Translations under genes and position numbers: made by a program | Shown: in pieces, positions 1-38,526 of the stretch | How the letters are laid out: each line of letters starts with the position of its first letter | How positions within the stretch are numbered: the first letter of the stretch is position 1 | Notes under the pieces: model-generated | The model's input: the letters and a program-made list of their open reading frames with translations, nothing else | Databases searched by the model: none | Told to the model about the DNA's origin: nothing | Assembly (NCBI RefSeq): GCF_057098645.1 | Contig: NZ_CM169472.1 | DNA length: 64,000 nucleotides | Direction: 5' to 3' (one strand)

Positions 1-296
1 GGCTGCGTTATGCCGATTCAGCCCGCGTCGTTAATGAGGCGCGCCCGCATTCCGATTTACCGTCAAAAGCTGCGGCGATGGTACGTGAAAACGTCATTGC
101 TCAGTTGGCTAATTTGCAAACTCATCCATCGGTGCGCCTGGCGCTCGAAGAGGGGCGGATCGCCCTGCACGGCTGGGTCTACGACATTGAAAGCGGCAGC
201 ATCGCAGCGTTTGACGGCGCAACCCGCCAGTTTGTGCCACTGGCCGCTAATCCTCGCGTTTGTGCCATACCGCTACGCCAACCGACCGCAGCGTAA
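1..296 (+). CDS. cynT: Cyanate-inducible carbonic anhydrase CynT, C-terminal part (5' end outside window; reading frame begins at base 3)
   Basis: Frame-3 translation ...[65 protein letters not shown]... matches the CynT C-terminus; followed by cynS and cynX as in the cyn operon. Confidence 0.85.
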
Positions 297-308
297 CCTT
301 ATTTTTAA

Positions 309-797
<489 letters not shown>

Positions 798-829
798 CAG
801 CCATGCGTAACCATCAAAAGACGTTCACG

Positions 830-1984
830 ATGCTGCTGGTTCTGGTGCTGATTGGTCTTAATATGCGACCACTGCTCACCTCCGTCGGGCCACTGCTACC
901 GCAATTGCGCCAGGCAAGCGGAATGAGCTTTAGCGTGGCTGCCCTGTTGACCGCTCTGCCGGTGGTTACCATGGGCGGGCTGGCGCTGGCCGGAAGCTGG
1001 CTTCATCAGCATGTCAGCGAACGTCGCAGCGTCGCCATCAGTTTGTTACTGATTGCCGTCGGTGCATTGATGCGTGAGCTTTACCCCCAAAGTGCGCTGC
1101 TGCTTAGCAGCGCACTGCTCGGTGGGGTGGGGATCGGCATCATTCAGGCAGTGATGCCTTCGGTGATTAAACGGCGGTTTCAGCAGCGCACGCCACTGGT
1201 GATGGGGCTGTGGTCCGCGGCTCTGATGGGCGGCGGTGGACTTGGTGCCGCCCTGACGCCCTGGTTAGTTCAACATAGCGAAACCTGGTATCAAACACTC
1301 GCCTGGTGGGCGCTGCCTGCCGTTGTTGCGCTCTTTGCCTGGTGGTGGCAAAGCACCCGCGAGGTCGCCTCTTCCCACAAGACAACAACCACTCCGGTTC
1401 GCGTGGTTTTCACTCCTCGCGCGTGGACGCTGGGTGTTTACTTCGGTCTGATTAACGGTGGTTACGCCAGCCTGATTGCCTGGTTACCCGCCTTCTATAT
1501 TGAGATTGGTGCCAGCGCGCAGTACAGCGGTTCCTTGCTGGCATTGATGACGCTTGGGCAAGCCGCAGGAGCTTTGCTGATGCCTGCTATGGCTCGCCAT
1601 CAGGATCGGCGCAAACTTTTGCTGTTGGCACTGGCGTTACAACTGGTGGGTTTCTGCGGCTTTATCTGGCTGCCGCTGCAATTGCCGGTATTGTGGGCGA
1701 TGGTGTGTGGGTTAGGTCTGGGCGGCGCGTTTCCGCTCTGTTTGCTGCTGGCGCTCGATCACTCTGCGCAACCGGCTATTGCTGGCAAGCTGGTGGCGTT
1801 TATGCAGGGGATCGGTTTTATCATCGCCGGGCTTGCCCCGTGGTTTTCTGGTGTGCTGCGTAGTATCAGCGGCAATTACCTGATGGACTGGGCATTTCAT
1901 GCGCTGTGCGTCGTTGGGCTGATGATTATAACCCTGCGTTTTGCACCAGCACGTTTTCCGCAGCTGTGGGTCAAAGAGGCATGA
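830..1984 (+). CDS. cynX: Cyanate transporter CynX (MFS), about 384 aa
   Basis: ORF 803..1984 is a multi-TM MFS protein; recognised N-terminus MLLVLVLIGLNMRPLL begins at the internal Met at 830. Confidence 0.88.
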   Translation: MLLVLVLIGLNMRPLLTSVGPLLPQLRQASGMSFSVAALLTALPVVTMGGLALAGSWLHQHVSERRSVAISLLLIAVGALMRELYPQSALLLSSALLGGVGIGIIQAVMPSVIKRRFQQRTPLVMGLWSAALMGGGGLGAALTPWLVQHSETWYQTLAWWALPAVVALFAWWWQSTREVASSHKTTTTPVRVVFTPRAWTLGVYFGLINGGYASLIAWLPAFYIEIGASAQYSGSLLALMTLGQAAGALLMPAMARHQDRRKLLLLALALQLVGFCGFIWLPLQLPVLWAMVCGLGLGGAFPLCLLLALDHSAQPAIAGKLVAFMQGIGFIIAGLAPWFSGVLRSISGNYLMDWAFHALCVVGLMIITLRFAPARFPQLWVKEA

Positions 1985-2013
1985 TGCGACGCTTGTTTCT
2001 GCGCTTTGTTCAC

Positions 2014-2074
2014 GCCGGATGCGGCCTACGTAGGTCACTGAATTTGTAGGCCTGATAAGCGAAGCGTATCAGGC
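2014..2074. repeat. REP-type palindromic element between convergent cynX and lacA
   Basis: gccggatgcggcctacg...gtaggcctgataagcgaagcgtatcaggc, the typical REP consensus. Confidence 0.6.
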
Positions 2075-2086
2075 AATTTTTATAAT

Positions 2087-2698
2087 TTAAACTGACGATT
2101 CAACTTTGTAATCTCTGAAATAATATTGCTTATCCCGGTCGTTTATTTCGCGAATAACCCGGCAAGGAACGCCAGCAGCCACGACGTTTGGTGGAATGTC
2201 TTTTATGACGACACTACCCGCGCCAATAACAGAATTATCCCCGATGGTGACGCCAGGATTAATGACCACATGACTTCCGATCCAGACGTTATTGCCAATC
2301 GTTATCGGAAAAGAGTACATCTCACCGTTTTTTCTCAATTCATGGTGTACAGGGTGTCCCGTAACGGAAAGAGTAACATTGGGTGCAATCAATACGTTAT
2401 CACCGATCGTTACCGTGTAGTCGTCTACAATGGTTAAATTGAAATTTGCATAAAAATTGCGGCCTATATGGATGTTGGAACCGTAAGAGAAATAGACGGG
2501 TGGTTCTACCCAGGCGTTTTCCCCTACCGTGGCAAACATTTCTTTAATCAGGCTTTCTCTTTTTTCAACTTCTGATGGATGCGAGTGATTAAACTCATAC
2601 ATTAACGTTTTCCCACGAAGTCTTTTTTCCGGTAAGCCTTCGCACATATCGGTAAATAGCTTGCCTGCTTTTATTCTTTCGGTCATTGGCATGTTCAT
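2087..2698 (-). CDS. lacA: Galactoside O-acetyltransferase LacA, 203 aa
   Basis: Hexapeptide-repeat acetyltransferase; recognised start MNMPMTERIKAGKLF is internal to the longer ORF 2087..2749. Confidence 0.93.
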   Translation of the reverse strand: MNMPMTERIKAGKLFTDMCEGLPEKRLRGKTLMYEFNHSHPSEVEKRESLIKEMFATVGENAWVEPPVYFSYGSNIHIGRNFYANFNLTIVDDYTVTIGDNVLIAPNVTLSVTGHPVHHELRKNGEMYSFPITIGNNVWIGSHVVINPGVTIGDNSVIGAGSVVIKDIPPNVVAAGVPCRVIREINDRDKQYYFRDYKVESSV

Positions 2699-2763
2699 TG
2701 CGATCATTCCGTTATGATATGTTGGTCGGATAAGGCGCTCGCGCCGCATCCGACATTAATTGC

Positions 2764-4062
<1,299 letters not shown>

Positions 4063-7265: not shown

Positions 7266-8348
7266 TCACTGCCCGCTTTCCAGTCGGGAAACTTGTCGTG
7301 CCAGCTGCATTAATGAATCGGCCAACGCGCGGGGAGAGGCGGTTTGCGTCTTGGGCGCCAGGGTGGTTTTTCTTTTCACCAGTGAGACGGGCAACAGCTG
7401 ATTGCCCTTCACCGCCTGGCCCTGAGAGAGTTGCAGCAAGCGGTCCACGCTGGTTTGCCCCAGCAGGCGAAAATCCTGTTTGATGGTGGTTAACGGCGGG
7501 ATATAACACGAGCTGTCTTCGGTATCGTCGTATCCCACTACCGAGATATCCGCACCAACGCGCAGCCCGGACTCGGTAATGGCGCGCATTGCGCCCAGCG
7601 CCATCTGATCGTTGGCAACCAGCATCGCAGTGGGAACGATGCCCTCATTCAGCATTTGCATGGTTTGTTGAAAACCGGACATGGCACTCCAGTCGCCTTC
7701 CCGTTCCGCTATCGGCTGAATTTGATTGCGTGTGAGATATTTATGCCAGCCCGCCAGACGCAGACGTGCCGAGACAGAACTTAATGGACCCGCTAACAGC
7801 GCGATTTGCTGGTGACCCAATGCGACCAGATGCTCCACGCCCAGTCGCGTACCGTCTTCATGGGAGAAAATAATACTGTTGATGGGAGTCTGGTCAGAGA
7901 CATCAAGAAATAACGCCGGAACATTAGCGCAGGCTGCTTCCACAGCAGTGGCATCCTGGTCATCCAGCGGATAGTTAATGATCAGCCCACTGACGCGTTG
8001 CGCGAGAAGATTGTGCACCGCCGCTTTACAGGCTTCGACGCCGCTTCGTTCTACCATCGACACCACCACGCTGGCACCCAGTTGATCGGCGCGAGATTTA
8101 ATCGCCGCGACAATTTGCGATGGCGCGTGCAGGGCCAGACTGGAGGTGGCAACGCCAATCAGCAACGACTGTTTCCCCGCCAGTTGTTGTGCCACGCGGT
8201 TGGGAATGTAATTCAGCTCCGCCATCGCCGCTTCCACTTTTTCCCGCGTTTTCGCAGAAACGTGGCTGGCCTGGTTCACCACGCGGGAAACGGTCTGATA
8301 AGAGACACCGGCATACTCTGCGACATCGTATAGCGTTACTGGTTTCAC
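7266..8348 (-). CDS. lacI: Lactose repressor LacI, 360 aa, GTG start
   Basis: VKPVTLYDVAEYAGVSYQTVSRVVNQASHVSAKTREKVEAAMAELNYIPNRVAQQLAGKQS...; the ORF track extends three codons upstream, the recognised start is the GTG at 8348. Confidence 0.96.
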   Translation of the reverse strand: MKPVTLYDVAEYAGVSYQTVSRVVNQASHVSAKTREKVEAAMAELNYIPNRVAQQLAGKQSLLIGVATSSLALHAPSQIVAAIKSRADQLGASVVVSMVERSGVEACKAAVHNLLAQRVSGLIINYPLDDQDATAVEAACANVPALFLDVSDQTPINSIIFSHEDGTRLGVEHLVALGHQQIALLAGPLSSVSARLRLAGWHKYLTRNQIQPIAEREGDWSAMSGFQQTMQMLNEGIVPTAMLVANDQMALGAMRAITESGLRVGADISVVGYDDTEDSSCYIPPLTTIKQDFRLLGQTSVDRLLQLSQGQAVKGNQLLPVSLVKRKTTLAPKTQTASPRALADSLMQLARQVSRLESGQ

Positions 8349-8383
8349 ATTCACCACCCTGAATTGACTCTCTTCCGGGCGCT

Positions 8384-8412
8384 ATCATGCCATACCGCGA
8401 AAGGTTTTGCGC
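8384..8412 (-). promoter_or_regulatory. lacI promoter (-35 GCGCAA, -10 CATGAT)
   Basis: Minus strand gaatggcgcaaaacctttcgcggtatggcatgatagcgcc, identical to the classical lacI promoter; the -10 overlaps the stop codon of the upstream GlxA-like gene. Confidence 0.75.
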
Positions 8413-9338
8413 CATTCGGCGGGGCTGACGCCGAAGTGAGATTTAAAATGCTGACGCCAGGTCACAGGTGAGAGAAAACCCACCTCAGCCGCTATCCGCT
8501 CAACGGGCAACTGACTGGATCCCAACAGTTCCTGGCTACGGCGTAAGCGTTCAGTAATGAGCCATTCGGCGATACTCGAACCGGTCGCTTTCATAAAATG
8601 GCGAGTTAATGTGCGGCGACTCATCATTACTCGCTGCGCCAGCGAGTCGAGATCATGCTGTTGCGCAATGTTTTGCCGCAGGTAATCCAGCAGGAGATTA
8701 ATGCGTTCATCATGGGTATTTTTCGGCACTGGTTGCTCAATAAACTGCGCCTGACCGCCAGTGCGATATGGCGGTACGACCATCCGTCGGGCAATATGGT
8801 TAGCATAGTCGCTGCCAAAATGTTGCCGAACAATATACAAACAGCAATCCAGCGCCGCGGCAGTACCGGCAGAGGTAATAATGCCGTCATCGTCTACGTA
8901 CAACGCGTTAATATCCAGATGTGTTTGTGGAAAACGTGCCTGAAATTCACGCTCGAACTCCCAGTGTGTGGCGGCACGCTTATTTTTCAGTAAACCTGCA
9001 TAGCCGAGCACAAACGTGCCCAGGCAAAGCCCGACAATCTGTGCGCCGTTATCCCGTGCGGTCGTTAAGGCTTCCAGCAGTTTTTGTGGCGGTTTTTGTG
9101 TAATTGTTCCCCAGTAAGGAATTATCACAATATCCGCCTGGATGACTGCGGTATAGTCATGGGTGGCGGTTACGGAAAACCCATCGGCAGAGTCCACGTT
9201 TCCCGGCTTTTCAGCGCAGATAATTACGTGAAAGTGTTTTTTCTCCGCCATTTTTTCGCTAAATACGATAAACGGTACGGAAAGGTGAAAAGGACTAAAA
9301 CCGGCAACGGCGATAATGGCAACAGTTAGCGGGCGCAT
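8385..9338 (-). CDS. GlxA-family transcriptional regulator (N-terminal DJ-1/PfpI-like domain, C-terminal AraC-type HTH), 317 aa
   Basis: N-terminus VAIIAVAGFSPFHLSVPFIVF is a class-I glutamine-amidotransferase-like fold; C-terminus ...RRTLTRHFMKATGSSIAEWLITERLRRSQELL... is an AraC-type helix-turn-helix. Confidence 0.8.
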   Translation of the reverse strand: MRPLTVAIIAVAGFSPFHLSVPFIVFSEKMAEKKHFHVIICAEKPGNVDSADGFSVTATHDYTAVIQADIVIIPYWGTITQKPPQKLLEALTTARDNGAQIVGLCLGTFVLGYAGLLKNKRAATHWEFEREFQARFPQTHLDINALYVDDDGIITSAGTAAALDCCLYIVRQHFGSDYANHIARRMVVPPYRTGGQAQFIEQPVPKNTHDERINLLLDYLRQNIAQQHDLDSLAQRVMMSRRTLTRHFMKATGSSIAEWLITERLRRSQELLGSSQLPVERIAAEVGFLSPVTWRQHFKSHFGVSPAEWRKTFRGMA

Positions 9339-9357
9339 AACACTCTTTATCTCCGAA

Positions 9358-10134
9358 TTAGAATGTCAACGTTTCACCATCTTCTGGTACGTTTACAAAT
9401 TCGATAATTTGATTATCTCTGGCGTATTCCTTGAGCGCATCACGCGTCAGCAAACAGTGGTTTACGGCCTCCATATGTGTCGCGACAATTTGCGCTTCTG
9501 GCAGGGTAAAATGTGTTTTGAGAATATCTTCTGCTCCCATAATTATCGCGCCATGCCCCAGAACATGCGCAAATCCGGCATTCAACACAACCACTTCTGG
9601 TTGGAAAGTTAGCATTGTAGCCTCGACGTCGTCACGCCAGAGGGTATCGCCAGCCAGATAGAGCGTTTTCTCTGTCGGGTGCTGGAAAACAACGCCGCAG
9701 GCTGCGCCTAAACGCTTCGCCATAGCCGGGTCGGCATAGGTGCGATCGGAGCCGTGCTGCCCTGTCGTTTTATGCAGAGTAATATCGCCAAATTTAGTCT
9801 CGTCGGTAAGTACGGTAAGATGCGTAAATCCCTGTTTATTCAGTGATTCAGCATCTTGCTCATTTTGCACATAAATCAGTTTATCTTTAGGGACGACGCG
9901 GGAGGCTGTTTCGTCCCAGTGATCTTCATGCAAATGGGTCACGATTAGGGCGTCAACGTTGAGTAACGTTGTTAAATCGCACGGTAATTCTACCGTTGGA
10001 TTGCGGATTTCTGCGCGTGCCGTTCCGGCAAAACCCGGATAACTTCCTTTAGGCGCGAGTAACGGGTCGATAAGAAATGTTTTGCCAGCGTATTGGATAA
10101 TTTGGGTGGCATTACGAATTTGCGTAATTTTCAT
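9358..10134 (-). CDS. Metallo-beta-lactamase-fold hydrolase, about 258 aa
   Basis: HxHxDH motif (THLHEDHWDE) and downstream His/Asp ligands; likely ATG start at 10134 (the ORF track begins four codons earlier at a GTG); 19 bp upstream of the GlxA-like gene on the same strand. Confidence 0.8.
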   Translation of the reverse strand: MKITQIRNATQIIQYAGKTFLIDPLLAPKGSYPGFAGTARAEIRNPTVELPCDLTTLLNVDALIVTHLHEDHWDETASRVVPKDKLIYVQNEQDAESLNKQGFTHLTVLTDETKFGDITLHKTTGQHGSDRTYADPAMAKRLGAACGVVFQHPTEKTLYLAGDTLWRDDVEATMLTFQPEVVVLNAGFAHVLGHGAIIMGAEDILKTHFTLPEAQIVATHMEAVNHCLLTRDALKEYARDNQIIEFVNVPEDGETLTF

Positions 10135-10248
10135 GATTTGCCCCACATCACAGTATTGATGTCATTAGCGTAGCGTGCAGCCCGTACTGTGCATGTGGGC
10201 AAATGGGCGAATAACGATGAGAATGGGCCAATTTACACATTGGCGTAA

Positions 10249-11082
10249 CTAGCGTAAATGCACGCCGCTTCGCCGTCCGGCCACCAGAATAGCCTGCGAT
10301 TCAACCCCTTCTTCGATCTGTTTTGCTACCCGTTGTAGTGCCGGAAGATGCTTTTCCGCTGCTTGTTCGATGGTCATTGCGCTCGCCATATACACCAGAT
10401 TCAGACAGCCAATCACCCGCTGTTCACTGCGCAGCGGTACGGCGATAGAGGCGATCTTTTCCTCCTGATCCCAGCCGCGGTAGTTCTGTCCGTAACCCTC
10501 TTTGCGCGCGCGCGCCAGAATGGCTTCCAGCTTTAACGGTTCCCGTGCCAGTTGATAGTCATCACCGGGGCGGGAGGCTAACATTTCGATTAATTCCTTG
10601 CGTTCTTGTTCCGGGCAAAAGGCCAGCCAGGTCAGGCCCGAGGCGGTTTTCAGAAGCGGTAAACGTCGCCCGACCATTGCCCGGTGAAAAGATAATCGGC
10701 TGAAACGATGGGTGGTTTCGCGTACCACCATTGCATCAACATCCAGCGTGGACACATCTGTCGGCCATACCACTTCGCGCAACAGATCGCCCAGCAGTGG
10801 GGCCGCCAGTGCAGAAATCCACTGTTCGTCACGAAATCCTTCGCTTAATTGCCGCACTTTGATGGTCAGACGAAAACTATCATCGGAGGGACTACGCCGG
10901 ACATATCCCTCTTCCTGCAGCGTCTCCAGCAGTCGCCGCACAGTGGTGCGATGCAGGCCGCTGAGTTCCGCCAGCAGCCCGACGCTGGCACCGCCGTCAA
11001 GTTTATTTAACATATTTAATAACATTAGACCGCGGGTTAAGCCGCGCACGGTTTTGTATTCCGTCTGCTCATTGTTCTGCAT
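10249..11082 (-). CDS. mhpR: IclR-family activator MhpR, about 277 aa
   Basis: MQNNEQTEYKTVRGLTRGLMLLNMLNKLDGG...; the ORF track extends to 11196, the recognised start is the internal Met. Confidence 0.92.
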   Translation of the reverse strand: MQNNEQTEYKTVRGLTRGLMLLNMLNKLDGGASVGLLAELSGLHRTTVRRLLETLQEEGYVRRSPSDDSFRLTIKVRQLSEGFRDEQWISALAAPLLGDLLREVVWPTDVSTLDVDAMVVRETTHRFSRLSFHRAMVGRRLPLLKTASGLTWLAFCPEQERKELIEMLASRPGDDYQLAREPLKLEAILARARKEGYGQNYRGWDQEEKIASIAVPLRSEQRVIGCLNLVYMASAMTIEQAAEKHLPALQRVAKQIEEGVESQAILVAGRRSGVHLR

Positions 11083-11114
11083 ATTAATTGACATTTCTAT
11101 AGTTAAAACAACGT

Positions 11115-11131
11115 TGTGCACCTGGTGCACA
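11115..11131. promoter_or_regulatory. Perfect palindrome in the mhpR–mhpA divergent region (candidate MhpR operator)
   Basis: tGTGCACCtGGTGCACa between mhpR and mhpA. Confidence 0.6.
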
Positions 11132-11272
11132 TTCGGGCATGTTTTGATTGTAGCCGAAAACACCCTTCCTATACTGAGCGCACAATAAAAAATCATTTAC
11201 ATGTTTTTAACAAAATAAGTTGCGCTGTACTGTGCGCGCAACGGCATTTTGTCCGAGTCGTGAGGTACTGAA

Positions 11273-12937
11273 ATGGCAATACAACACCCTGACATCCAGC
11301 CTGCTGTTAACCATAGCGTTCAGGTGGCGATCGCTGGTGCCGGTCCGGTCGGGCTGATGATGGCGAACTATCTCGGCCAGATGGGCATTGACGTGCTGGT
11401 GGTGGAGAAACTCGATAAGTTGATCGACTACCCGCGTGCGATTGGTATTGATGACGAGGCGCTGCGCACCATGCAGTCGGTCGGCCTGGTCGATAATGTT
11501 CTGCCGCACACTACGCCGTGGCACGCGATGCGTTTTCTCACCCCGAAGGGCCGCTGTTTTGCTGATATTCAGCCAATGACCGATGAATTTGGCTGGCCGC
11601 GCCGTAACGCCTTTATTCAGCCGCAGGTCGATGCGGTGATGCTGGAAGGGGTGTCGCGTTTTCCGAATGTGCGCTGCTTGTTTTCCCGCGAGCTGGAGGC
11701 CTTCAGTCAGCAAGATGACGAAGTGACCTTGCACCTGAAAACGGCAGAAGGGCAGCGGGAAACGGTCAAAGCCCAGTGGCTGGTAGCCTGTGACGGTGGA
11801 GCAAGTTTTGTCCGTCGCACCCTGAATGTGCCGTTTGAAGGTAAAACTGCGCCAAATCAGTGGATTGTGGTAGATATCGCCAACGATCCGTTAAGTACGC
11901 CGCATATCTATTTGTGTTGCGATCCGGTGCGCCCGTATGTTTCTGCCGCGCTACCTCATGCGGTACGTCGATTTGAATTTATGGTGATGCCAGGAGAAAC
12001 CGAAGAACAGCTGCGTGAGCCGCAAAATATGCGCAAGCTGTTAAGCAAAGTGCTGCCTAATCCGGACAATGTTGAATTGATTCGCCAGCGTGTCTACACC
12101 CACAACGCGCGACTGGCGCAACGTTTCCGTATTGATCGCGTACTGCTGGCGGGCGATGCCGCGCACATCATGCCGGTATGGCAGGGGCAGGGCTATAACA
12201 GTGGCATGCGCGACGCCTTTAACCTCGCATGGAAACTGGCGTTGGTTATCCAGGGGAAAGCCCGCGATGCGCTGCTCGATACCTATCAACAAGAACGTCG
12301 CGATCACGCCAAAGCGATGATTGACCTGTCCGTGACGGCGGGCAACGTGCTGGCTCCGCCGAAACGCTGGCAGGGTACGTTACGTGACGGCGTTTCCTGG
12401 CTGCTGAATTATCTGCCGCCAGTAAAACGCTACTTCCTCGAAATGCGCTTCAAGCCGATGCCGCAATATTACGGCGGTGCGCTGGTACGTGAGGGCGAAG
12501 CGAAGCACTCTCCGGTCGGCAAGATGTTTATTCAGCCGAAAGTCACGCTGGAAAACGGCGACGTGACGCTGCTCGATAACGCGATCGGCGCGAACTTCGC
12601 GGTAATTGGCTGGGGATGCAATCCACTGTGGGGGATGAGCGACGAGCAAATCCAGCAGTGGCGCGCGTTGGGCACACGCTTCATTCAGGTGGTGCCGGAA
12701 GTGCAAATTCATACCGCACAGGATAACCATGACGGCGTACTACGCGTGGGGGATACGCAAGGTCGCCTGCGTAGCTGGTTCGCGCAACACAATGCTTCGC
12801 TGGTGGTGATGCGCCCGGATCGCTTTGTTGCCGCCACCGCCATTCCGCAAACCCTGGGCAAGACCCTGAATAAACTGGCGTCGGTGATGACGCTGACCCG
12901 CCCTGATGCCGACGTTTCTGTCGAAAAGGTAGCCTGA
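11273..12937 (+). CDS. mhpA: 3-(3-hydroxyphenyl)propionate hydroxylase MhpA, 554 aa
   Basis: FAD-binding N-terminus [29 protein letters not shown]; first gene of the mhp operon. Confidence 0.96.
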
Positions 12938-12938
12938 T

Positions 12939-13883
12939 ATGCACGCTTATCTTCATTGTCTTTCCCACTCGCCGCTGGTGGGGTATGTCGACCCGGCACA
13001 AGAGGTACTCGATGAGGTCAATGGCGTGATTGCCAGCGCCCGCGAGCGTATTGCGGCTTTCTCCCCTGAACTGGTGGTGCTGTTTGCGCCAGATCACTAC
13101 AACGGCTTTTTCTATGACGTGATGCCACCGTTCTGTTTAGGCGTTGGAGCGACGGCAATTGGTGATTTCGGCAGTGCGGCAGGAGAGCTGCCCGTGCCTG
13201 TGGAGCTGGCGGAGGCCTGTGCGCATGCCGTCATGAAGAGCGGGATCGATCTTGCCGTTTCTTACTGTATGCAGGTGGACCACGGGTTCGCCCAGCCGCT
13301 GGAGTTCCTGCTCGGTGGGCTGGATAAGGTGCCAGTTCTGCCTGTGTTCATCAACGGTGTCGCCACGCCGCTGCCCGGTTTCCAGCGTACCCGCATGTTG
13401 GGTGAAGCCATTGGACGTTTCACCAGCACTCTCAATAAACGCGTGCTGTTCCTGGGTTCCGGTGGGCTTTCCCATCAGCCGCCGGTGCCTGAACTGGCGA
13501 AAGCCGATGCCCATATGCGCGACCGTCTGTTGGGGAGCGGGAAAGATTTACCCGCCAGTGAGCGCGAATTGCGTCAGCAACGGGTGATTAGCGCCGCTGA
13601 GAAGTTTGTTGAGGATCAGAGAACTCTGCATCCGCTCAACCCGATTTGGGATAACCAGTTCATGACTTTGCTGGAGCAGGGACGCATACAGGAACTGGAT
13701 GCCGTCAGTAACGAAGAGCTTTCCGCCATTGCCGGAAAGTCGACACATGAAATCAAAACCTGGGTCGCCGCTTTTGCCGCTATTTCTGCATTTGGCAACT
13801 GGCGTAGCGAAGGGCGTTATTACCGCCCAATCCCGGAGTGGATTGCCGGATTTGGCTCGTTAAGCGCCAGAACAGAGAACTGA
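12939..13883 (+). CDS. mhpB: 2,3-dihydroxyphenylpropionate 1,2-dioxygenase MhpB, 314 aa
   Basis: [19 protein letters not shown]...; extradiol dioxygenase in operon position. Confidence 0.96.
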
Positions 13884-13900
13884 ATTTGCAGGAGAAGATG

Positions 13901-14767
13901 ATGAGTTATCAGCCACAAACCGAAGCCGCCACCAGCCGTTTTCTGAATGTAGAAGAAGCGGGTAAAACGCTGCGCATCCATTTTAATGACTGCGGACAAG
14001 GCGACGAAACCGTTGTCCTGCTGCATGGTTCCGGCCCGGGTGCTACTGGCTGGGCGAACTTCAGCCGCAATATCGATCCGCTGGTAGAGGCGGGCTATCG
14101 GGTGATCCTACTGGATTGTCCGGGTTGGGGCAAGAGCGATTCGATCGTTAATAGTGGTTCACGATCGGATCTTAATGCGCGCATCCTGAAAAGTGTGGTG
14201 GATCAACTGGATATCGCCAAAATCCACCTGTTGGGCAACTCGATGGGCGGCCATAGTTCTGTGGCGTTCACCCTTAACTGGCCGGAGCGCGTCGGCAAAC
14301 TGGTGCTGATGGGCGGCGGTACGGGCGGCATGAGTTTGTTTACGCCGATGCCAACCGAAGGTATTAAGCGACTGAATCAGCTTTATCGTCAGCCGACTAT
14401 CGAAAACCTGAAACTGATGATGGATATCTTCGTTTTTGATACCAGCGATTTGACCGACGCCCTGTTTGAAGCGCGCCTGAATAATATGCTGTCGCGCCGC
14501 GATCACCTGGAAAACTTCGTTAAGAGCCTGGAAGCCAATCCGAAACAGTTCCCTGATTTTGGCCCACGTCTGGCGGAAATCAAAGCGCAAACCCTGATTG
14601 TCTGGGGGCGCAACGACCGCTTTGTGCCGATGGATGCGGGGCTGCGTCTACTGTCCGGCATTGCTGGTTCTGAACTGCATATCTTCCGCGACTGTGGTCA
14701 CTGGGCGCAGTGGGAACATGCCGATGCTTTCAATCAACTGGTGCTGAATTTCCTCGCACGTGCTTAA
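13901..14767 (+). CDS. mhpC: 2-hydroxy-6-ketonona-2,4-dienedioate hydrolase MhpC, 288 aa
   Basis: Alpha/beta hydrolase with GNSMGG nucleophile motif; start [14 protein letters not shown] preceded by RBS caggagaag; the ORF track extends upstream to 13838. Confidence 0.93.
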
Positions 14768-16529
<1,762 letters not shown>

Positions 16530-16533
<4 letters not shown>

Positions 16534-17543
16534 ACGGTAAAAAACTTTATATCTCGGACGTCACGTTGCGTGACGGTATGCACGCCATTCGTCATCAGTA
16601 TTCGCTGGAAAACGTTCGCCAGATTGCCAAAGCACTGGACGATGCCCGCGTGGATTCGATTGAAGTGGCCCACGGCGACGGTTTGCAGGGTTCCAGCTTT
16701 AACTATGGTTTCGGCGCACATAGCGACCTTGAATGGATTGAAGCGGCGGCGGATGTTGTGAAGCACGCCAAAATCGCGACGTTGTTGCTGCCAGGAATCG
16801 GCACTATTCACGATCTGAAAAATGCCTGGCAGGCTGGCGCGCGGGTGGTTCGTGTGGCAACGCACTGTACCGAAGCTGATGTTTCCGCCCAGCATATTCA
16901 GTATGCCCGCGAGCTCGGAATGGACACCGTTGGTTTTCTGATGATGAGCCATATGACCACGCCGGAGAATCTCGCCAAGCAGGCAAAGCTGATGGAAGGC
17001 TACGGTGCGACCTGTATTTATGTGGTGGATTCTGGCGGTGCGATGAACATGAGCGATATCCGTGACCGTTTCCGCGCCCTGAAAGCAGTGCTGAAACCAG
17101 AAACGCAAACCGGCATGCACGCTCACCATAACCTGAGTCTTGGCGTGGCGAACTCTATCGCGGCGGTGGAAGAGGGCTGCGACCGAATCGACGCCAGCCT
17201 CGCGGGAATGGGCGCGGGCGCAGGTAACGCGCCGCTGGAAGTATTTATTGCCGCCGCGGATAAACTGGGTTGGCAGCATGGGGCCGATCTCTATGCGTTA
17301 ATGGATGCCGCTGACGACCTGGTGCGTCCGTTGCAGGATCGACCGGTACGAGTCGATCGCGAAACGCTGGCGCTGGGATACGCTGGTGTTTACTCCAGCT
17401 TCCTGCGTCACTGTGAAACGGCGGCGGCGCGTTATGGCTTAAGCGCGGTGGATATTCTCGTTGAGCTGGGCAAACGCCGGATGGTTGGCGGCCAGGAGGA
17501 TATGATCGTCGACGTGGCGCTGGATCTGCGCAACAACAAATAA
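16530..17543 (+). CDS. mhpE: 4-hydroxy-2-oxovalerate aldolase MhpE, 337 aa
   Basis: [25 protein letters not shown]...; 4-bp overlap with mhpF. Confidence 0.96.
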
Positions 17544-17585
17544 TATTGACTGCCGAGAACGTGCATTTTGTATGCCCATCCCAGC

Positions 17586-17945
<360 letters not shown>

Positions 17946-18019
17946 ATTAAATAGTTCTGATTACGCGGCTGGCAATGTATCAGTCGCGATTCACCTGCAC
18001 TCGCAACGAGGTTCATCTT

Positions 18020-19231
18020 ATGTCGACTCGTACCCCTTCATCATCTTCATCCCGCCTGATGCTGACCATCGGGCTTTGTTTTTTGGTCGCTCTGATGGAA
18101 GGGCTGGATCTTCAGGCGGCTGGCATTGCGGCGGGTGGCATCGCCCAGGCTTTCGCACTCGATAAAATGCAAATGGGCTGGATATTCAGCGCCGGAATAC
18201 TCGGTTTGCTACCCGGCGCGTTGGTTGGCGGAATGCTGGCGGACCGTTATGGTCGCAAGCGCATTTTGATTGGCTCAGTTGCGCTGTTTGGTTTGTTCTC
18301 GCTGGCAACGGCGATTGCCTGGGATTTCCCCTCACTGGTCTTTGCGCGGCTGATGACCGGTGTCGGGCTGGGGGCGGCGTTGCCGAATCTTATCGCCCTG
18401 ACGTCTGAAGCCGCGGGTCCACGTTTTCGTGGGACGGCAGTGAGCCTGATGTATTGCGGTGTTCCCATTGGCGCGGCGCTGGCGGCGACACTGGGTTTCG
18501 CGGGGGCAAATTTAGCATGGCAAACGGTGTTTTGGGTAGGTGGTGTGGTGCCGTTGATTCTGGTGCCGCTATTAATGCGCTGGCTGCCGGAGTCGGCGGT
18601 ATTCGCTGGCGAAAAACAGGCTGCGCCACCACTGCGTGCGTTATTTGCGCCAGAAACGGCAACCGCGACGCTGCTGCTGTGGCTGTGTTATTTCTTCACT
18701 CTGCTGGTGGTTTACATGTTGATCAACTGGCTACCGCTGCTTTTGGTGGAGCAAGGATTCCAGCCATCGCAGGCGGCAGGGGTGATGTTTGCACTGCAAA
18801 TGGGTGCGGCGAGCGGGACGTTAATGTTGGGCGCATTGATGGATAAGCTGCGTCCAGTAACCATGTCGCTACTGATTTATAGCGGCATGTTAGCTTCGCT
18901 GCTGGCGCTTGGAACGGTGTCGTCATTTAACGGTATGTTGCTGGCGGGATTTGTCGCGGGGTTGTTTGCGACAGGTGGGCAAAGCGTTTTGTATGCCCTG
19001 GCACCGTTGTTTTACAGTTCGCAGATCCGCGCAACAGGTGTGGGAACAGCCGTGGCGGTAGGGCGTCTGGGGGCTATGAGCGGTCCGTTACTGGCCGGGA
19101 AAATGCTGGCATTAGGCACTGGCACGGTCGGCGTAATGGCCGCTTCTGCACCGGGTATTCTTGTTGCTGGGTTGGCGGTGTTTATTTTGATGAGTCGGAG
19201 ATCAAGAATGCAGCCGTGTGCCGATGCCTGA
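18020..19231 (+). CDS. mhpT: 3-hydroxyphenylpropionate transporter MhpT (MFS), 403 aa
   Basis: MSTRTPSSSSSRLMLTIGLCFLVALMEGLDLQAAG...; the ORF track extends upstream to 17975. Confidence 0.93.
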   Translation: MSTRTPSSSSSRLMLTIGLCFLVALMEGLDLQAAGIAAGGIAQAFALDKMQMGWIFSAGILGLLPGALVGGMLADRYGRKRILIGSVALFGLFSLATAIAWDFPSLVFARLMTGVGLGAALPNLIALTSEAAGPRFRGTAVSLMYCGVPIGAALAATLGFAGANLAWQTVFWVGGVVPLILVPLLMRWLPESAVFAGEKQAAPPLRALFAPETATATLLLWLCYFFTLLVVYMLINWLPLLLVEQGFQPSQAAGVMFALQMGAASGTLMLGALMDKLRPVTMSLLIYSGMLASLLALGTVSSFNGMLLAGFVAGLFATGGQSVLYALAPLFYSSQIRATGVGTAVAVGRLGAMSGPLLAGKMLALGTGTVGVMAASAPGILVAGLAVFILMSRRSRMQPCADA

Positions 19232-19332
19232 CGCGCCTTATTAAGCAGGGGCGAAAGGGAATTGCCCCCAATACACCCACGGCGTTTACAGGTATACTCG
19301 CTAAAAATTATTCAGCGGGTTTGGAAACATAG

Positions 19333-22501: not shown

Positions 22502-23548
22502 TTATGCCGCATCCGCTAAAACAAACATCCCGTAAGGATGGATTTCGAGGTAATAGTGCTCACCAATATCGGGCTGTAAACGGGTGGCGTTTACTTGTAA
22601 TAAAATCTCCTGTCCATGCCACTCTACGGTCACTTCGTACTGCGGCCCCATGTAGGCGACATGGCGAATAACACAACGCTGACTCTCTTCGCCGTGATTG
22701 CTTAAGGTGATGGCTTCCGGGCGAACGCCGACGGTGCCGCTACCTTGCGCCGGGAAATGCGCCGCGCGCGGCAGGCGATAACCGTAGATATCGACATACT
22801 CTTCGCTAAAGTTCGCCGGGAACAGGTTGGCGTCGCCCATAAAACTTGCCATAAATCGGGAGGCTGGCTGACGATAGAGATCCTGCGGTGAGCCAATCTG
22901 CATGATGTGACCTTTATTCATCACCAGCACAGTGTCGGACACCGCGAAAGCTTCACTTTGATCGTGAGTGACGTAGAGCGACGTGATATTAAACTGCTTT
23001 TGCAGCTCGCGGATCTTATCGCGCATACTGCGGCGCAGGTTGGCATCGAGGTTACTTAACGGCTCATCAAACAGCAGCACCTTTGGCTTGAGGATCAACG
23101 CGCGGGCCAGTGCCACACGCTGTTGCTGACCACCGGAAATCTGATCGACATAGCGGTCCTCGAAGCCTTCCAGATCCACCATTGCCAGCGCCTCCTTCAC
23201 CCGCTGTTTCACTTCGCTACGCGACACGCCAAGCATCTTCAGCCCGTAGCCAACGTTTTCACCCAGCGACATATGCGGGAACAGAGCGTATGACTGAAAC
23301 ACCATGCAGATATCGCGCTGTTGAATGGAACGATGCGTGACATCTTCGCCATCAATAAAAATTTGCCCTTCGCTCGGTTTTTCCAGCCCGGCAACCAGAC
23401 GCAAAATGGTGGTTTTGCCACAGCCGGAAGGACCGAGCAGCGTCACCATTTGCCCTTGTGGAATGGTGAGATTGATATTGTCGATAACCGTATTACTGCC
23501 GAATCGTTTAGTGACGTTGCGCAGTTCAACAAAATTTTTCTGACTCAT
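22502..23548 (-). CDS. afuC: ABC transporter ATP-binding subunit, AfuC/FbpC-like, about 348 aa
   Basis: Walker [10 protein letters not shown], signature [15 protein letters not shown], Walker B LLFDEP; likely start [12 protein letters not shown] with RBS ggagcg; the ORF track extends to 23560. Confidence 0.88.
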
Positions 23549-23559
23549 AGTGCGCTCCA

Positions 23560-25638
23560 TTACGCCTGGTTTTTGGCTTTAGAACGGGAGATACGAGCTT
23601 CTCCGATCAGCCAGTCAAAGAGGAAAATAATCGCCAGCATCACCACGATCAGAATCGAACCATAGGCGATGGCTACGCCATATTCGCCGTCTTCAACGCG
23701 GTTAAGAATGTAGGCGGTTGCCACGCGGGTGTCCGGCGTGACGAGAAAGACGATGGCGCTGACCGTCGTGATGGCCCGCACAAAGCTGTAGATCAGGGCC
23801 GAGAGAATGGCCGGGCGCAGCAGCGGCAGTAAAATGTGCGTAATGGTTCGCAGTGAACCCGCGCGCAGGCTGAGTGAGGCTTCATCCAGCGATTTGTCGA
23901 TCTGCCCCAGGCCTGCAATCCCGGCGCGAATACCCACCGGAACGTTACGCATCACCATCGAGATAATCACAATTGCCGCCGTTCCGGTGAGATAAACCGG
24001 AGCGCTGTTAAAGGCAAGAATATACGAAACGCCCGCCACCGTACCCGGTACGGCAAAGCACAGCATGGTGGTGAACTCGATGGTCTTTTTGCCTTTGAAT
24101 TGTTGACGCACCACCACCCAGGCGATGAGCAGGCCAAAGATAGCGGTAATGGGAGCGGCAATCCCGGCGTAGAGCAGGGTATCCAGCAGTGAAGGCCACG
24201 CGCCGTCGCTCATTCCCTGACCAAATAGCTTGATAAAGTTATCCAGCGTCAGGGTGTAGTCCACGCCCCAGTTCACCGTGAAGCTGCCGTAGAAAATGCT
24301 GCCGTAGAGCAGGGCGTTAAAGGCAATCCATATCGCAAGTATGGCGACCACGCTCCATACCAGGGTGACCGGTAGCGGCTGGACGTCGCCACGGTAGGAT
24401 TTGCCGGAAACCGTGACGTAAGAGCGTTTACCAATCCACATATACTGGATGCAGAACACCAGCAGCGAGAACAGCAGCAGGAAAGCGCCAAGGGTGCTGG
24501 CGGCCTGATAATCCAGCTGCGAGCCGGTAATATAGAAGTAAATTTGCGTCGCCAGTACGTCGAAGTTACCGCCAAGTACCAGCGGGTTACTGAAATCAGC
24601 CAGTGACTGTACCACGACGATTAAAAAGGCATTGGCGAGTGCGGGCTTCAACAACGGCACAAACACGCCGTTAAAGGTTTGCCAGCGGCTGGCGCGCAGG
24701 GTGTAGGAGGCCTCTTCCAGCGAGGGATGAATGGTTTTAATGGCCCCGTCGAGGATCATAAATGCCATTGGCGTGAATGCCAGAACCTGTGCCAGCCAGA
24801 TCCCGGTAAAACCGTACAGCCAGTTGGTGTTGGTCAGCCCAAACCACTCCACCATAAATTCCGTAACATAGCCGGAGCGCCCCATCATGAGCGTCACGCC
24901 TAAGCCGACCACAAACGGTGGCGTAACGATGGGCAAAATGGAAAAGATGCGACCAATAATGGCGCTGCGTTTAGCGATGCGCGTGGTATAAATCGCCAGC
25001 ACCAGGCCGAAGAAAGTACAGCCTATCCCCACCGCTATCGACAAGACGATAGAGTTGACGATCACCTGAACAATATGTGCCTGCGAGAGCACGGTCATAA
25101 ACGCCAGCGGGGCGAACTCTCCCGCGTCGTTGGTGAACATCGGGATAAAAATGGCGATGCTCGGCCAGACGATAAAAATGCCAATCAGCGCCACAATCGC
25201 AATCAGTGAGCCGATCACGAAGCGGTCGCCACCCAGCCATTCGAGGCGGGTTAAGGCCAGCGTCATAATCGCGCCTAGTTCGACAAACAGCACGATGGCG
25301 GCGTAGCCTAAACCGCGTCCAACCACGGTGGCGCTGATGACGATAAACGCCATACAGAGCAATGCCCAGCCGGCATCGAAATAATGACGGCTACGTTGTT
25401 CGCGCGTGGCCTCACTAAACGGGCGGACCAGCAACAGGCTCGGGAGTAAATACCACAGCCAGCTGATATTAAAATGCGACCAGCCGTACGCCCCGAGGAT
25501 CTCATCACTCGTGGACTCCAGCAGGCCATAATCGAGGCTCCAGCTCGGCAACAGGACAAATGCCAGCCAACCCAGCAAAACCCAAAGGAAAATCGCATCC
25601 CGCTTTTTCACGGGATGGAGTGCAAGTGTCTGTGACAT
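23560..25638 (-). CDS. afuB: ABC transporter fused double permease, AfuB/FbpB-like, 692 aa
   Basis: Two tandem multi-TM permease halves; its stop overlaps the longest afuC ORF. Confidence 0.85.
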
Positions 25639-25706
25639 AGCAGTTCCGGTATGGTTGGCCGGGGCAGGCGTCTGCGCTGCACCCGGAAAATACGCCTAAT
25701 GCGGGT

Positions 25707-26738
25707 TTATTTACCCATCTTCACTTCGCTGACCCATTTATTAATCAATGCCTTACGAACATCCGTGGAACCATATTTATCCATGTCGTAGTTGATTAAT
25801 TTCAGGTCGTCGAGCTTCAGTGAATTTGGCGACGTTTCGGCGGTGGTATTGGTCAGGATCTGATAAGACTTCCCTTTCTTCCACGCCAGTTCCTGAGCTT
25901 CTTTTGATAATACCCAGTCCACAAACAGTTTGGCGTTGTCGAGGTTGCGCGCGCCTTTCAGAATGCTGACGCCGCCAATTTCGTAGCCTGTACCTTCACA
26001 CGGGGAAATCAACTCCAGCGGCGCGCCCTGTTCTTTTTCCAGCGAGTAGTCATGCAGGAAGCCAATACCAATCGCCGTTTCGCCACGGGCGGCGTTACGT
26101 GCCGGGGCTATGCCTGATTTGGTGTACTGAGAGACGTTGGCGTTCAGTTGTTTTAGATAATCAAAGGCCTGATCTTCCCCCCACAGCTGCGCAAAAGTAG
26201 CCAGGGCGGTGTAGGCAGTACCGGAACTTTGCGGATCGGCAATTTGAATTTCGCCTTTATATTCCGGTTTGGTGAGATCTTTCCAGCACTTCGGCACCGG
26301 CAGGTTTTTCTCTTTCAGACGATCGGTGTTTACGCCAAAACCGAGGATCCCCACATAAACGGCAGAGGACAGATTCCCTTTCACTTTTGCCGGATCGCGG
26401 AATTTCTCCATGATCTGCTCAAGGTTAGGGGATTTATACGCCTGTAGCAGGCCCATCTCGCCAGCCTGCGATTGCGGGTCTAAAGTGCCGCCGTACCAGA
26501 CGTCAGCCTGGGGGTTTTTCTTTTCAGCATCGACTTTTGCCAGGGTGCTTCCGGAACCGTTGCGGATAAACGAGGTTTTTACATCATATTTCTCGCCAAA
26601 CGCTTTGGTTTCGGCCTCACACATTTCATTGGTGGCGCTGCAATAGACCACCAGCCGGCCTTTTGCCTGCGCGGCACCCGTTAAAGTCGCCAGCGCAACG
26701 GCAGAAGCAATCAGAGTAGAGGTAAAGGTCATTTTCAT
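25707..26738 (-). CDS. afuA: Periplasmic substrate-binding protein, AfuA/FbpA-like, about 343 aa with signal peptide
   Basis: MKMTFTSTLIASAVALATLTGAAQA signal peptide followed by a type-II binding-protein fold; the longer ORF (to 27065) overlaps the upstream gene and is an artefact. Confidence 0.85.
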   Translation of the reverse strand: MKMTFTSTLIASAVALATLTGAAQAKGRLVVYCSATNEMCEAETKAFGEKYDVKTSFIRNGSGSTLAKVDAEKKNPQADVWYGGTLDPQSQAGEMGLLQAYKSPNLEQIMEKFRDPAKVKGNLSSAVYVGILGFGVNTDRLKEKNLPVPKCWKDLTKPEYKGEIQIADPQSSGTAYTALATFAQLWGEDQAFDYLKQLNANVSQYTKSGIAPARNAARGETAIGIGFLHDYSLEKEQGAPLELISPCEGTGYEIGGVSILKGARNLDNAKLFVDWVLSKEAQELAWKKGKSYQILTNTTAETSPNSLKLDDLKLINYDMDKYGSTDVRKALINKWVSEVKMGK

Positions 26739-28051
26739 TGTTTTATCCTTCGAGCGTGAGTGGTGGTGATGCCCGCCATCAGTAACGGCATCAGCAGTAA
26801 ACCCATAAGTACTGCGGCGACCGAGAGTAAACTGAACATTCCCGGCCAGCCGTAGCGTTCGATGACCAGCGACAGCGGCCAGCCTGCCAGCGCCGCGCCA
26901 AGGTAAGCGAACAGGCCGAGAAATCCGGTGATTGAACCCGCCGCAGCTTTGTGCCCACACTCCACCGCCGCAAGTCCAATCAGCATTTGTGGGCCAAAGA
27001 CGAAAAAGCCCACGGTAAAAAAGCACACTGCCAGCAGAGCGTAGTGATGAACCGGTGCCAGCCACAGTGCGGCGACTGACACCATCAACCCCAACGTGAA
27101 CAGCAAAATCATTGGCGCTCGTTGCCCGCTAAACAGCAAATCCGATCCCCATCCGGCAAATAACGCGCCGAGTAAGCCGCCCACTTCAAACAGCATTACC
27201 GTGGCGTTGGCGCTGAGCAGGTTGACACCGTGGCTTTCCGTCAGCCAGATATTGCCCCAGTCGTTAAGCGCAATCCGGATCACATAAACCAGTACATAAG
27301 AGACGCCCAGTAGCCAGATCAGCGGATTTTGCAGCATGGTGGTGCGCAACATTTGCCACAGCCCCATCGGCGGACTTTGTTGTTCCTGACGTAACTCCAG
27401 CGGATCGTGACGCCAGTGACCAACTGTCGGTAATCCCTCTTCCTGGGGCGTGCCTTTGAGTTGTAGCGTTAACCAGATCCCTAATGCCATGCTGATTATC
27501 CCCGGTGTCAGCATCGCGGCCTGCCAGCCCCACCAGTGGGCGGCAAAGGCGCTAATCAGCGGAATAATCGCTCCGCCAATGTTGATCGACATATTCCAGC
27601 AGCCCCACCAGAAACCGCGCTCATTGCGTGAGTACCAGTGGGTCAGCAAGCGGGCACACGGTGGCCATCCCCAGCCCTGAAAAAAACCGTTCAGTGTCCA
27701 GACCACAAGCAGAAGCGTAAGTGATTCGCCAAAGGCAAACACCACGTTCAATAACCCGGTGGCGAACAAGCCGACGCCCATAAAACCGCGTTGTCCATGG
27801 CTGTCATGCCACAGTCCGGCGGTAAATTTCGACAATCCGTAGCTGAGATAAAACAGCGAACCCAGCAGGCCAATGTCGCCTTTATCCAGTCCGAGGTCGG
27901 TTTGTAGCGCCGGAAGGACGTAATTCACGCTTTTTCGCGTCAGATAAAATGCGGCGTAGCCAATAATCATGCACATCAGCAATCGCGGACGTAATGTCCG
28001 GTAGCATTGATTAATTTCTCTCGCTGAACGCGCGTGCATGGTTGTCTCCAT
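26735..28051 (-). CDS. UhpC-like sugar-phosphate sensor/transporter (MFS, organophosphate:Pi antiporter family), 438 aa
   Basis: ...YAAFYLTRKSVNYVLPALQTDLGLDKGDIGLLGSLFYLSYGLSKF... resembles UhpC/UhpT/GlpT; its stop TGA overlaps the afuA start ATG (cAATGAaa). Confidence 0.82.
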   Translation of the reverse strand: METTMHARSAREINQCYRTLRPRLLMCMIIGYAAFYLTRKSVNYVLPALQTDLGLDKGDIGLLGSLFYLSYGLSKFTAGLWHDSHGQRGFMGVGLFATGLLNVVFAFGESLTLLLVVWTLNGFFQGWGWPPCARLLTHWYSRNERGFWWGCWNMSINIGGAIIPLISAFAAHWWGWQAAMLTPGIISMALGIWLTLQLKGTPQEEGLPTVGHWRHDPLELRQEQQSPPMGLWQMLRTTMLQNPLIWLLGVSYVLVYVIRIALNDWGNIWLTESHGVNLLSANATVMLFEVGGLLGALFAGWGSDLLFSGQRAPMILLFTLGLMVSVAALWLAPVHHYALLAVCFFTVGFFVFGPQMLIGLAAVECGHKAAAGSITGFLGLFAYLGAALAGWPLSLVIERYGWPGMFSLLSVAAVLMGLLLMPLLMAGITTTHARRIKQ

Positions 28052-28123
28052 GTTGCTGACTATATGAAAATGAAAGTGAAAGGGGATGAGAGAAAATCCG
28101 GGATACCTAAGACTTTTTCCTGG

Positions 28124-35616: not shown

Positions 35617-38526
<2,910 letters not shown>

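Follow-up and report, generated by a model that had tools for sequence, protein, structure and literature searches.

Results

The two-gene block between lacI and mhpR is O-island 19

The DNA analyzed here is a 64,000-nucleotide (nt) stretch (NCBI RefSeq assembly GCF_057098645.1, contig NZ_CM169472.1), referred to as the window, whose first 50 kb differ at 14 nt from Escherichia coli O145 str. RM9872, with coinciding RefSeq gene coordinates. Between lacI and mhpR it carries a block of two genes on the same strand, one encoding a hydrolase with a metallo-beta-lactamase (MBL) fold and, downstream of it, one encoding a GlxA-type regulator (Table 1). Our comparisons demonstrated that this block is O-island 19 (OI-19) of the E. 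coli O157:H7/O55:H7/O145:H28 lineage, which comprises ovrA (z0442) and z0443. The RefSeq product name of the O157:H7 regulator (WP_001247696.1) is 'OI-19-encoded virulence regulator OvrA', and the regulator of the window is identical to it in 316 of 317 amino acids, the sole difference being H35R. Likewise, the window and OI-19 of O157:H7 EDL933 have in common the locus between lacI and mhpR, both genes and 98.9% nucleotide identity; nothing substantive differs, and the window represents an O145-type allele. The locus has already been described and is not new, and an initial annotation of the window, made from the sequence alone, had missed both OI-19 and the named regulator OvrA.

OI-19 is reported as a 1834-bp island holding z0442 (ovrA) and z0443 (Liu et al. 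2020, J Infect Dis 221:820, as summarized in PMC8565820 and PMC10877973). In the two reviews, OvrA is described as binding 5'-GACATTTAATGATAATG-3' in the LEE1 promoter of the locus of enterocyte effacement (LEE) and activating ler, as promoting adherence and mouse colonization, and as having orthologues in O145:H28, O157:H16 and O55:H7 that act alike in a positive role, and deletion of z0443 is reported there to be without a virulence phenotype, its function being called hypothetical or unidentified (PMC8565820, PMC10877973). In addition, a microarray study found a 10-fold RpoS-dependent expression of Z0443 (PMC2907692). The LEE does not lie within the window, and a scan of the window for the published LEE1 site with up to three mismatches returned a single match (3 mismatches) inside lacZ, which is at chance level.

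A BLAST comparison with a panel of E. coli genomes, as had been proposed in the initial annotation, placed the full block in 435 of 5426 complete genomes (megablast, 97.9-100% identity), with K-12 not among them. In these 435 genomes it is always chromosomal and present in one copy per genome, and the carriers include O157:H7, O55:H7 and O145 as well as a few strains without a serotype.

The initial annotation had described the layout of the locus correctly. It had given lacI and mhpR as adjacent and about 80 bp apart in K-12, and their spacing was measured as 76 nt in MG1655 (NC_000913.3 367511-367586), a spacer that contains neither of the two genes, compared with 1900 nt in the window. The two genes that it had placed within about 1.9 kb, with products of 258 and 317 amino acids on the same strand and 19 nt between them, agree with our analysis in all coordinates, and Pfam confirmed its reading of an HxHxDH MBL-fold hydrolase next to a GlxA-type regulator with DJ-1/PfpI and AraC domains. 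The short gap is consistent with a single transcript for the z0443 orthologue and ovrA. Both genes equal their O157:H7 orthologues in length, with 13 nt changes and 1 amino acid change in ovrA and 6 nt changes and 1 amino acid change in the MBL gene. Neither open reading frame (ORF) is thus a pseudogene, an outcome that would have spoken against the initial annotation; both genes are intact and, judging from these substitutions, under purifying selection.

Remnants of ovrA point to two deletions in E. coli

The K-12 spacer is identical over 70 nt to positions 8349-8418 of the window and thereby reaches 34 nt into the ovrA reading frame. Since the EWRKTFRGMA-stop tail of OvrA encoded by these 34 nt is kept in an alignment of the Citrobacter, Enterobacter and Yersinia orthologues, the K-12 sequence is a piece of the gene and not spacer read by chance. 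A longer remnant of 99 nt was found in 487 of the 5426 complete E. coli genomes, which include UTI89, Nissle 1917 and other B2-type strains, and is labeled by PGAP as a GlxA-family pseudogene without N-terminus. The 'empty' sites of other strains are therefore not clean, since ovrA remnants are present in them. The B2-type deletion is a separate event of 10.8 kb, in which the whole mhp cluster is gone and the 99-nt ovrA remnant is joined to the region upstream of yaiL. A microhomology (CAT/TGG) at the K-12 deletion junction was considered as well and was set aside as too short and too ambiguous for any claim.

Outside E. coli, the order MBL gene-regulator-lacI-lacZ was found in Citrobacter rodentium and in eight of ten further Citrobacter species, with lacI being 80-83% identical. 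Divergence from C. rodentium was comparable for ovrA (dN 0.19, dS 1.6, dN/dS 0.12) and lacI (dN 0.16, dS 1.3, dN/dS 0.12), with dN and dS denoting nonsynonymous and synonymous divergence; dS was saturated for the hydrolase gene, and dN/dS was therefore omitted for this gene. A search of the block for a mobility gene or integrase, a tRNA or a flanking repeat found none, and an Rfam search was likewise negative. The GC content of the block (48-52%, compared with 54-58% in the flanks) was not scored as deviant composition.

Because ovrA 3' remnants occur in K-12 and B2 strains and because Citrobacter has the MBL gene-regulator-lacI order, the K-12 arrangement is best explained as a derived state that arose by deletion. 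Together with the lacI-like divergence and the lack of mobility features, these observations show the block, by genome comparison, to be an ancestral enterobacterial two-gene module beside lacI that was lost at least twice in E. coli, once by a K-12-type deletion leaving 34 nt of ovrA and once by a B2-type deletion leaving 99 nt and removing the mhp cluster. The direction of the 'insertion between lacI and mhpR' assumed in the initial annotation is hence reversed. More generally, an island that is recognized by comparison with K-12 can reflect a deletion in K-12, which does not always represent the ancestral state.

Another block listed in the literature as missing from K-12 occupies positions 22502-30294 of the window. 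It contains an fbpC-type ABC transporter (348, 692 and 343 amino acids), a UhpC-like transporter, a MASE1 histidine kinase and a response regulator, which as Z0463 has been assigned to O-island 20 in a microarray paper. An ABC transporter with this architecture is the immediate neighbor of the MBL gene-regulator-lacI cluster in C. rodentium (locus L005, positions 1-3981), which hints that this second block, too, is ancestral rather than inserted.

The hydrolase belongs to the SaxA family

In Pfam the hydrolase matched Lactamase_B_2 (E 2e-11) and otherwise only generic Lactamase_B families. Its closest PDB sequence, aligned over residues 1-258 with 54% identity (E 4e-88), is 6BRM, the 'metal-dependent isothiocyanate hydrolase SaxA', followed by 3RPC, an uncharacterized hydrolase (E 2e-72). 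The residues H67, H69, D71, H72, H127, D163 and H220, which form the HxHxDH motif and the later His/Asp/His metal ligands, do not vary among ten aligned homologues. The initial annotation had called the enzyme 'lactonase-like or glyoxalase-II-like', a proposal that could not be upheld, since no glyoxalase II or lactonase family of NCBIfam or Pfam matched the hydrolase and its closest characterized relative is SaxA. The sole NCBIfam match, PRK00685 ('metal-dependent hydrolase'), fell below the cut-off, and no equivalog was found. Isothiocyanates are hydrolyzed by SaxA enzymes, which constitute a separate MBL subfamily, to yield an amine and carbonyl sulfide (PMC7303113). By homology, these results show the z0443 product to be a SaxA-family protein, and they suggest that the E. 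coli enzyme may have isothiocyanate hydrolase activity.

Within the family, the window protein is 54-55% identical to 6BRM and to the proteins of Pseudomonas and Pectobacterium loci, which are about equally far from each other. Enterobacter cloacae possesses two paralogues, whose identities to the window protein and to 6BRM are 67% and 57%, respectively, for one and 55% and 86% for the other. Because both types coexist in this species, the clade of E. coli, Citrobacter, Enterobacter and Klebsiella enzymes is regarded as a sister of the crystallized 6BRM type. In E. cloacae DSM 26481 each of the two SaxA-family paralogues (L026, L068) has its own OvrA-type regulator and operator. The coexistence of one E. 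coli-type and one 6BRM-type enzyme suggests two specificities within the SaxA family.

OvrA has a DJ-1/PfpI domain with a conserved cysteine

The regulator consists of a DJ-1_PfpI domain (residues 6-171) and an AraC-type HTH_18 domain (residues 233-311) according to Pfam, the same two-domain architecture as in GlxA-family and FtrA-type regulators, including AdpA (PDB 3W6V, DNA-binding domain). Its best NCBIfam match was FtrA (NF006902, E 6e-97); the score of 324.6 bits lies below the curated cut-off of 425, which ruled out OvrA as an FtrA equivalog. For residues 1-181 the nearest solved structures are isocyanide hydratases (PDB 3NON/6NI5, E 3e-12). Cys105 of OvrA, located in a GLCLG motif and invariant in six orthologues, aligns with the catalytic nucleophile cysteine of isocyanide hydratase. 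Unlike that enzyme, OvrA carries a fused DNA-binding domain and acts as a transcription factor. Isothiocyanates are established to add to thiols, and covalent sensing via Cys105 is therefore plausible.

The hydrolase gene is paired with the regulator across genera

A scan with one genome per species yielded 80 hydrolase loci, the flanks of which were searched by tblastn for an OvrA homologue within 4 kb, defined by more than 200 aligned residues (more than 280 in all cases). Such a homologue, with 44-80% identity, was present in 68 of the 80 species. A same-strand regulator gene downstream of the hydrolase gene was seen in 55 loci from Enterobacterales, Aeromonas, Marinomonas and Salinivibrio, the gap being 18-130 nt in 54 species and about 895 nt in the remaining one. 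In a further 13 loci, from Pseudomonas, Stutzerimonas and Advenella, the regulator gene is located upstream in divergent orientation, often together with an isochorismatase, which is the layout implied by Pseudomonas saxCAB with its regulator, hydrolase and saxB. Of the 12 loci in which no regulator was found, three (L036, L037, L082) keep the operator described below and may have been truncated by the limited length of contigs or flanks, and the upstream sequence of a further one (L079) was too short to score. Taken with the conserved operator, the pairing strongly supports the initial proposal of a unit composed of a regulator and a detoxifying hydrolase.

In Pseudomonas syringae, saxCAB is described as encoding the isothiocyanate hydrolase SaxA, SaxB and the regulator SaxC (Fan et al. 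2011, as cited in PMC12903958 and PMC6922522). The gene order around the exact 6BRM protein is MFS transporter, isochorismatase, LysE-type exporter, SaxA, DJ-1/PfpI-HTH regulator, resolvase and Tn3 transposase. The MBL enzyme of E. coli is similar over its full length to that of 6BRM and has all metal motifs, and OvrA likewise adjoins the enzyme gene and is 57% identical to the regulator beside the 6BRM SaxA gene and 44-46% identical to the Pseudomonas regulators; the 41-nt upstream element is common to E. coli and Pseudomonas as well. However, the E. coli locus is without a saxB-like isochorismatase and without efflux genes, its regulator is downstream in one operon rather than divergent, its enzyme belongs to the sister clade, and E. 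coli inhabits the gut instead of infecting plants. The 6BRM block itself (L011-L013) was found in differing surroundings, including a position next to conjugation genes (TraU), which indicates that the 6BRM version of the module is mobile.

A conserved control region precedes the hydrolase gene

The hydrolase gene is preceded by a 41-nt operator-like element, AAATTGGCCCATTCTCATCGTTATTCGCCCATTTGCCCACA, which fits the consensus AGATTGGCCCGATTTCATCGATAATTGTCCTTTAGGCCACT derived from 70 loci and includes TTGGCCC, TCGCCC and TTGCCC repeats. A first, strict regular expression of paired half-sites matched only eight of the 80 loci, and an iterated position weight matrix (PWM) was used instead. With this matrix 67 of the 68 regulator-bearing loci exceeded the top score of shuffled sequences (6.7 bits), mostly with 30-50 bits, compared with seven regulator-less loci below zero and one (L079) that could not be scored. 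The window element reached 45.1 bits and was the only positive hit in the 64 kb, the next best scoring -1.6. Moreover, a PWM built from 11 Pseudomonas-type loci alone, a test that is independent of enterobacterial descent owing to this training set, ranked the window site first among about 128,000 positions (10.9 vs 5.5 bits).

In 50 of 71 loci a TAnnnT hexamer follows the element by 21-23 nt. Relative to the promoter predicted from this hexamer, with a predicted transcription start near position 10160, the element spans about -74 to -34, an arrangement that corresponds to a class II site of an AraC-type activator overlapping a weak -35. The phylogenetic footprint thus shows the predicted operator and -10 to be conserved from E. 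coli to Pseudomonas, and it suggests that OvrA may bind the 41-nt operator and autoregulate the two-gene operon. The C upstream of the -10 and the RpoS dependence of z0443 would fit a sigma-S promoter.

The region also contains a 20-nt inverted repeat (10136-10155 and 10185-10204, 75% complementary). Through this repeat, the ribosome-binding site and start codon of the hydrolase gene are covered by a second TTTGCCCCACA that points the opposite way, and the partner arm overlaps the operator at its promoter-proximal end. The repeat might serve as an additional site for a regulator or form a structure in mRNA or DNA.

Table 1. Positions of genes, predicted control elements and deletion intervals at the OI-19 locus of the window.
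Feature	Position	Strand	Basis or remark
lacI (flank, RefSeq start)	7266-8348	minus	ORF list and RefSeq annotation of near-identical O145 RM9872
ovrA orthologue (z0442), GlxA-type regulator, 317 amino acids	8385-9338	minus	Pfam and RefSeq OvrA match
ovrA 3' end, 34 nt, surviving in the K-12 MG1655 lacI-mhpR spacer	8385-8418	minus	encodes EWRKTFRGMA and stop
ovrA 3' end, 99 nt, surviving in B2-type strains (UTI89, Nissle 1917)	8385-8483	minus	
Stretch missing in K-12-type genomes, about 1.82 kb	8419-10242		right edge approximate, last spacer bases differ
Stretch missing in B2-type genomes (most of ovrA, hydrolase gene, mhpR through mhpT)	8484-19267		
Intergenic gap between hydrolase stop and ovrA start, 19 nt	9339-9357	minus	
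z0443 orthologue, MBL fold, SaxA family, 258 amino acids from ATG	9358-10134	minus	motif THLHEDH
Predicted -10 hexamer TACGCT (with upstream C: CTACGCT, 10173-10167)	10167-10172	minus	inferred
Operator-like element, 41 nt, AAATTGGCCCATTCTCATCGTTATTCGCCCATTTGCCCACA	10234-10194	minus	predicted site of OvrA/SaxC-type regulator
mhpR (flank)	10249-11082	minus	ORF list and RefSeq annotation of O145 RM9872

Discussion

The kinship of the hydrolase with SaxA, its widespread pairing with an OvrA-type regulator and the conserved control region make it probable that the block constitutes a self-regulated isothiocyanate detoxification module, formed by a SaxA-like hydrolase and OvrA, whose regulator also drives the LEE. 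According to this model, the z0443 product would hydrolyze isothiocyanates (R-N=C=S), which stem from the glucosinolates of brassica plants in diet or feed, to an amine and carbonyl sulfide. OvrA would be the counterpart of SaxC, an AraC-type activator with a DJ-1/PfpI domain that keeps the reactive elbow Cys105, and its binding to the 41-nt element of a promoter with a weak -35, possibly of the sigma-S type, would activate the two-gene operon to which ovrA itself belongs. Modification of Cys105 by the electrophile may act as the trigger. In LEE-positive strains OvrA is, in addition, reported to bind the LEE1 promoter and activate ler. An isothiocyanate or another electrophile would then be the signal of OvrA, and through the regulator this signal would be linked to the LEE.

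Several points weigh against an isothiocyanate module in E. coli. The proposed function of the E. coli proteins is drawn from comparison. The hydrolase clade is separate from the 6BRM type, so that its substrate could differ. Exposure of P. viridiflava to isothiocyanate caused only a slight rise of saxA and saxB, and saxC was not induced. An elbow cysteine is common across DJ-1/PfpI domains, and Cys105 is therefore a lead and not specific evidence for isothiocyanate sensing. A sigma-70 consensus scan upstream of position 10134 gave no minus-strand promoter, a result superseded by the phylogenetic footprint; the promoter that the initial annotation had sought there was accordingly absent from the consensus scan and is represented by the conserved operator and predicted -10. 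The similarity between the AT-rich published LEE1 site and the GC-rich operator is weak as well (5.0 bits, a score reached by 167 of 5000 shuffles, or about 3%), and since the LEE1 site resembles only the central part of the element, this similarity was not used as evidence.

The literature treats the block as a horizontally acquired O-island specific to enterohemorrhagic E. coli (EHEC), inserted between lacI and mhpR for virulence regulation, with z0443 as a passenger. This framing accounts for the absence of the block from K-12 and about 92% of complete E. coli genomes, and it agrees with the listing of OI-19 among 177 O-islands and with the finding, as given in the reviews, that OvrA activates ler and that z0443 deletion lacks a virulence phenotype. 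The ovrA 3' remnants of 34 nt in K-12 and 99 nt in B2 strains, however, largely refute an insertion, and the Citrobacter gene order, a divergence and dN/dS matching those of lacI, and the lack of detectable mobility genes, tRNA or flanking repeats all argue in the same direction. Moreover, conservation of the gene pair and its operator extends to many genera, among them Enterobacter, Klebsiella, Yersinia, Aeromonas and Pseudomonas. To our knowledge, these genera do not have the LEE, and we consider an acquired virulence island highly improbable. Even less credence is given to the notion that the genes are a decaying leftover, in the process of being lost in E. coli and without native function beyond the reported LEE effect. 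The repeated independent loss of the block and, according to the reviews, the lack of a virulence phenotype upon z0443 deletion would be in line with decay; on the other hand, both ORFs are intact with synonymous changes far exceeding replacements, the operator is preserved at 45 bits, z0443 is expressed in an RpoS-dependent manner, and ovrA deletion has phenotypes according to the same reviews.

A more serious competitor, which we nevertheless regard as rather unlikely, is a detoxification unit for another substrate, such as a lactone, a thioester (glyoxalase-II type), an isocyanide, an isocyanate or a carbodiimide, with isothiocyanates being irrelevant in E. coli. The paralogy of the E. coli hydrolase clade and the 6BRM clade, the isocyanide hydratases as nearest solved relatives of the sensor domain, and the lack of an NCBIfam equivalog for the hydrolase would all accommodate such a substrate. 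The absence of any match to a glyoxalase II or lactonase family counts against it, as do the operator and gene pairing common to Pseudomonas sax-type loci. In addition, the hydrolase is about as close (approximately 54-55% identity) to 6BRM as to the Pseudomonas and Pectobacterium loci, which belong to the genera of characterized SaxA enzymes and are separated by equal mutual distances.

Building on the isothiocyanate module, we put forward more tentatively, as a possibility that carries considerable doubt, that brassica isothiocyanates in the gut of cattle or humans modify Cys105 of OvrA, induce the hydrolase and tune ler and the LEE in O157:H7, O55:H7, O145:H28 and possibly C. rodentium, which carries the same gene pair, and that this circuit disappeared by deletion from K-12 and from most lineages of commensal and extra-intestinal strains. 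If OvrA does sense dietary isothiocyanates, a direct link would exist between diet and attaching-and-effacing virulence. Should z0443 encode an isothiocyanate hydrolase with OvrA as the cognate sensor, a concrete and cheaply testable signal would be available for an LEE activator, along with a possible reason for a difference between EHEC lineages and K-12 in the tolerance of brassica-derived compounds. The locus itself being known, the value of the analysis lies in proposing a specific function of z0443 that can be put to the test, together with a candidate for the signal to which an established virulence regulator responds.

Our literature search, in which the primary OI-19 work was covered through reviews, found no link of SaxA to O157 or z0443. 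The two reviews on OI-19 name no signal for OvrA and assign no function to z0443 (PMC8565820, PMC10877973), the microarray study likewise treats z0443 as a gene without assigned function (PMC2907692), and a 2025 review of phytochemicals against EHEC, which treats isothiocyanates at length, never mentions OvrA or the hydrolase. Relative to the literature examined, the polarity of the deletions, the assignment of z0443 as SaxA-like and the conserved control region are new.

Two further features of the window may be recorded. Across the lac operon from the block, positions 1-1984 hold cynT (carbonic anhydrase), cynS (cyanase) and cynX; carbonyl sulfide, a product of isothiocyanate hydrolases, is a substrate of carbonic anhydrase. 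Finally, according to the annotation of the near-identical O145 record, positions 35617-38505 contain an intact autotransporter gene of 2.9 kb between hemB and iprA.

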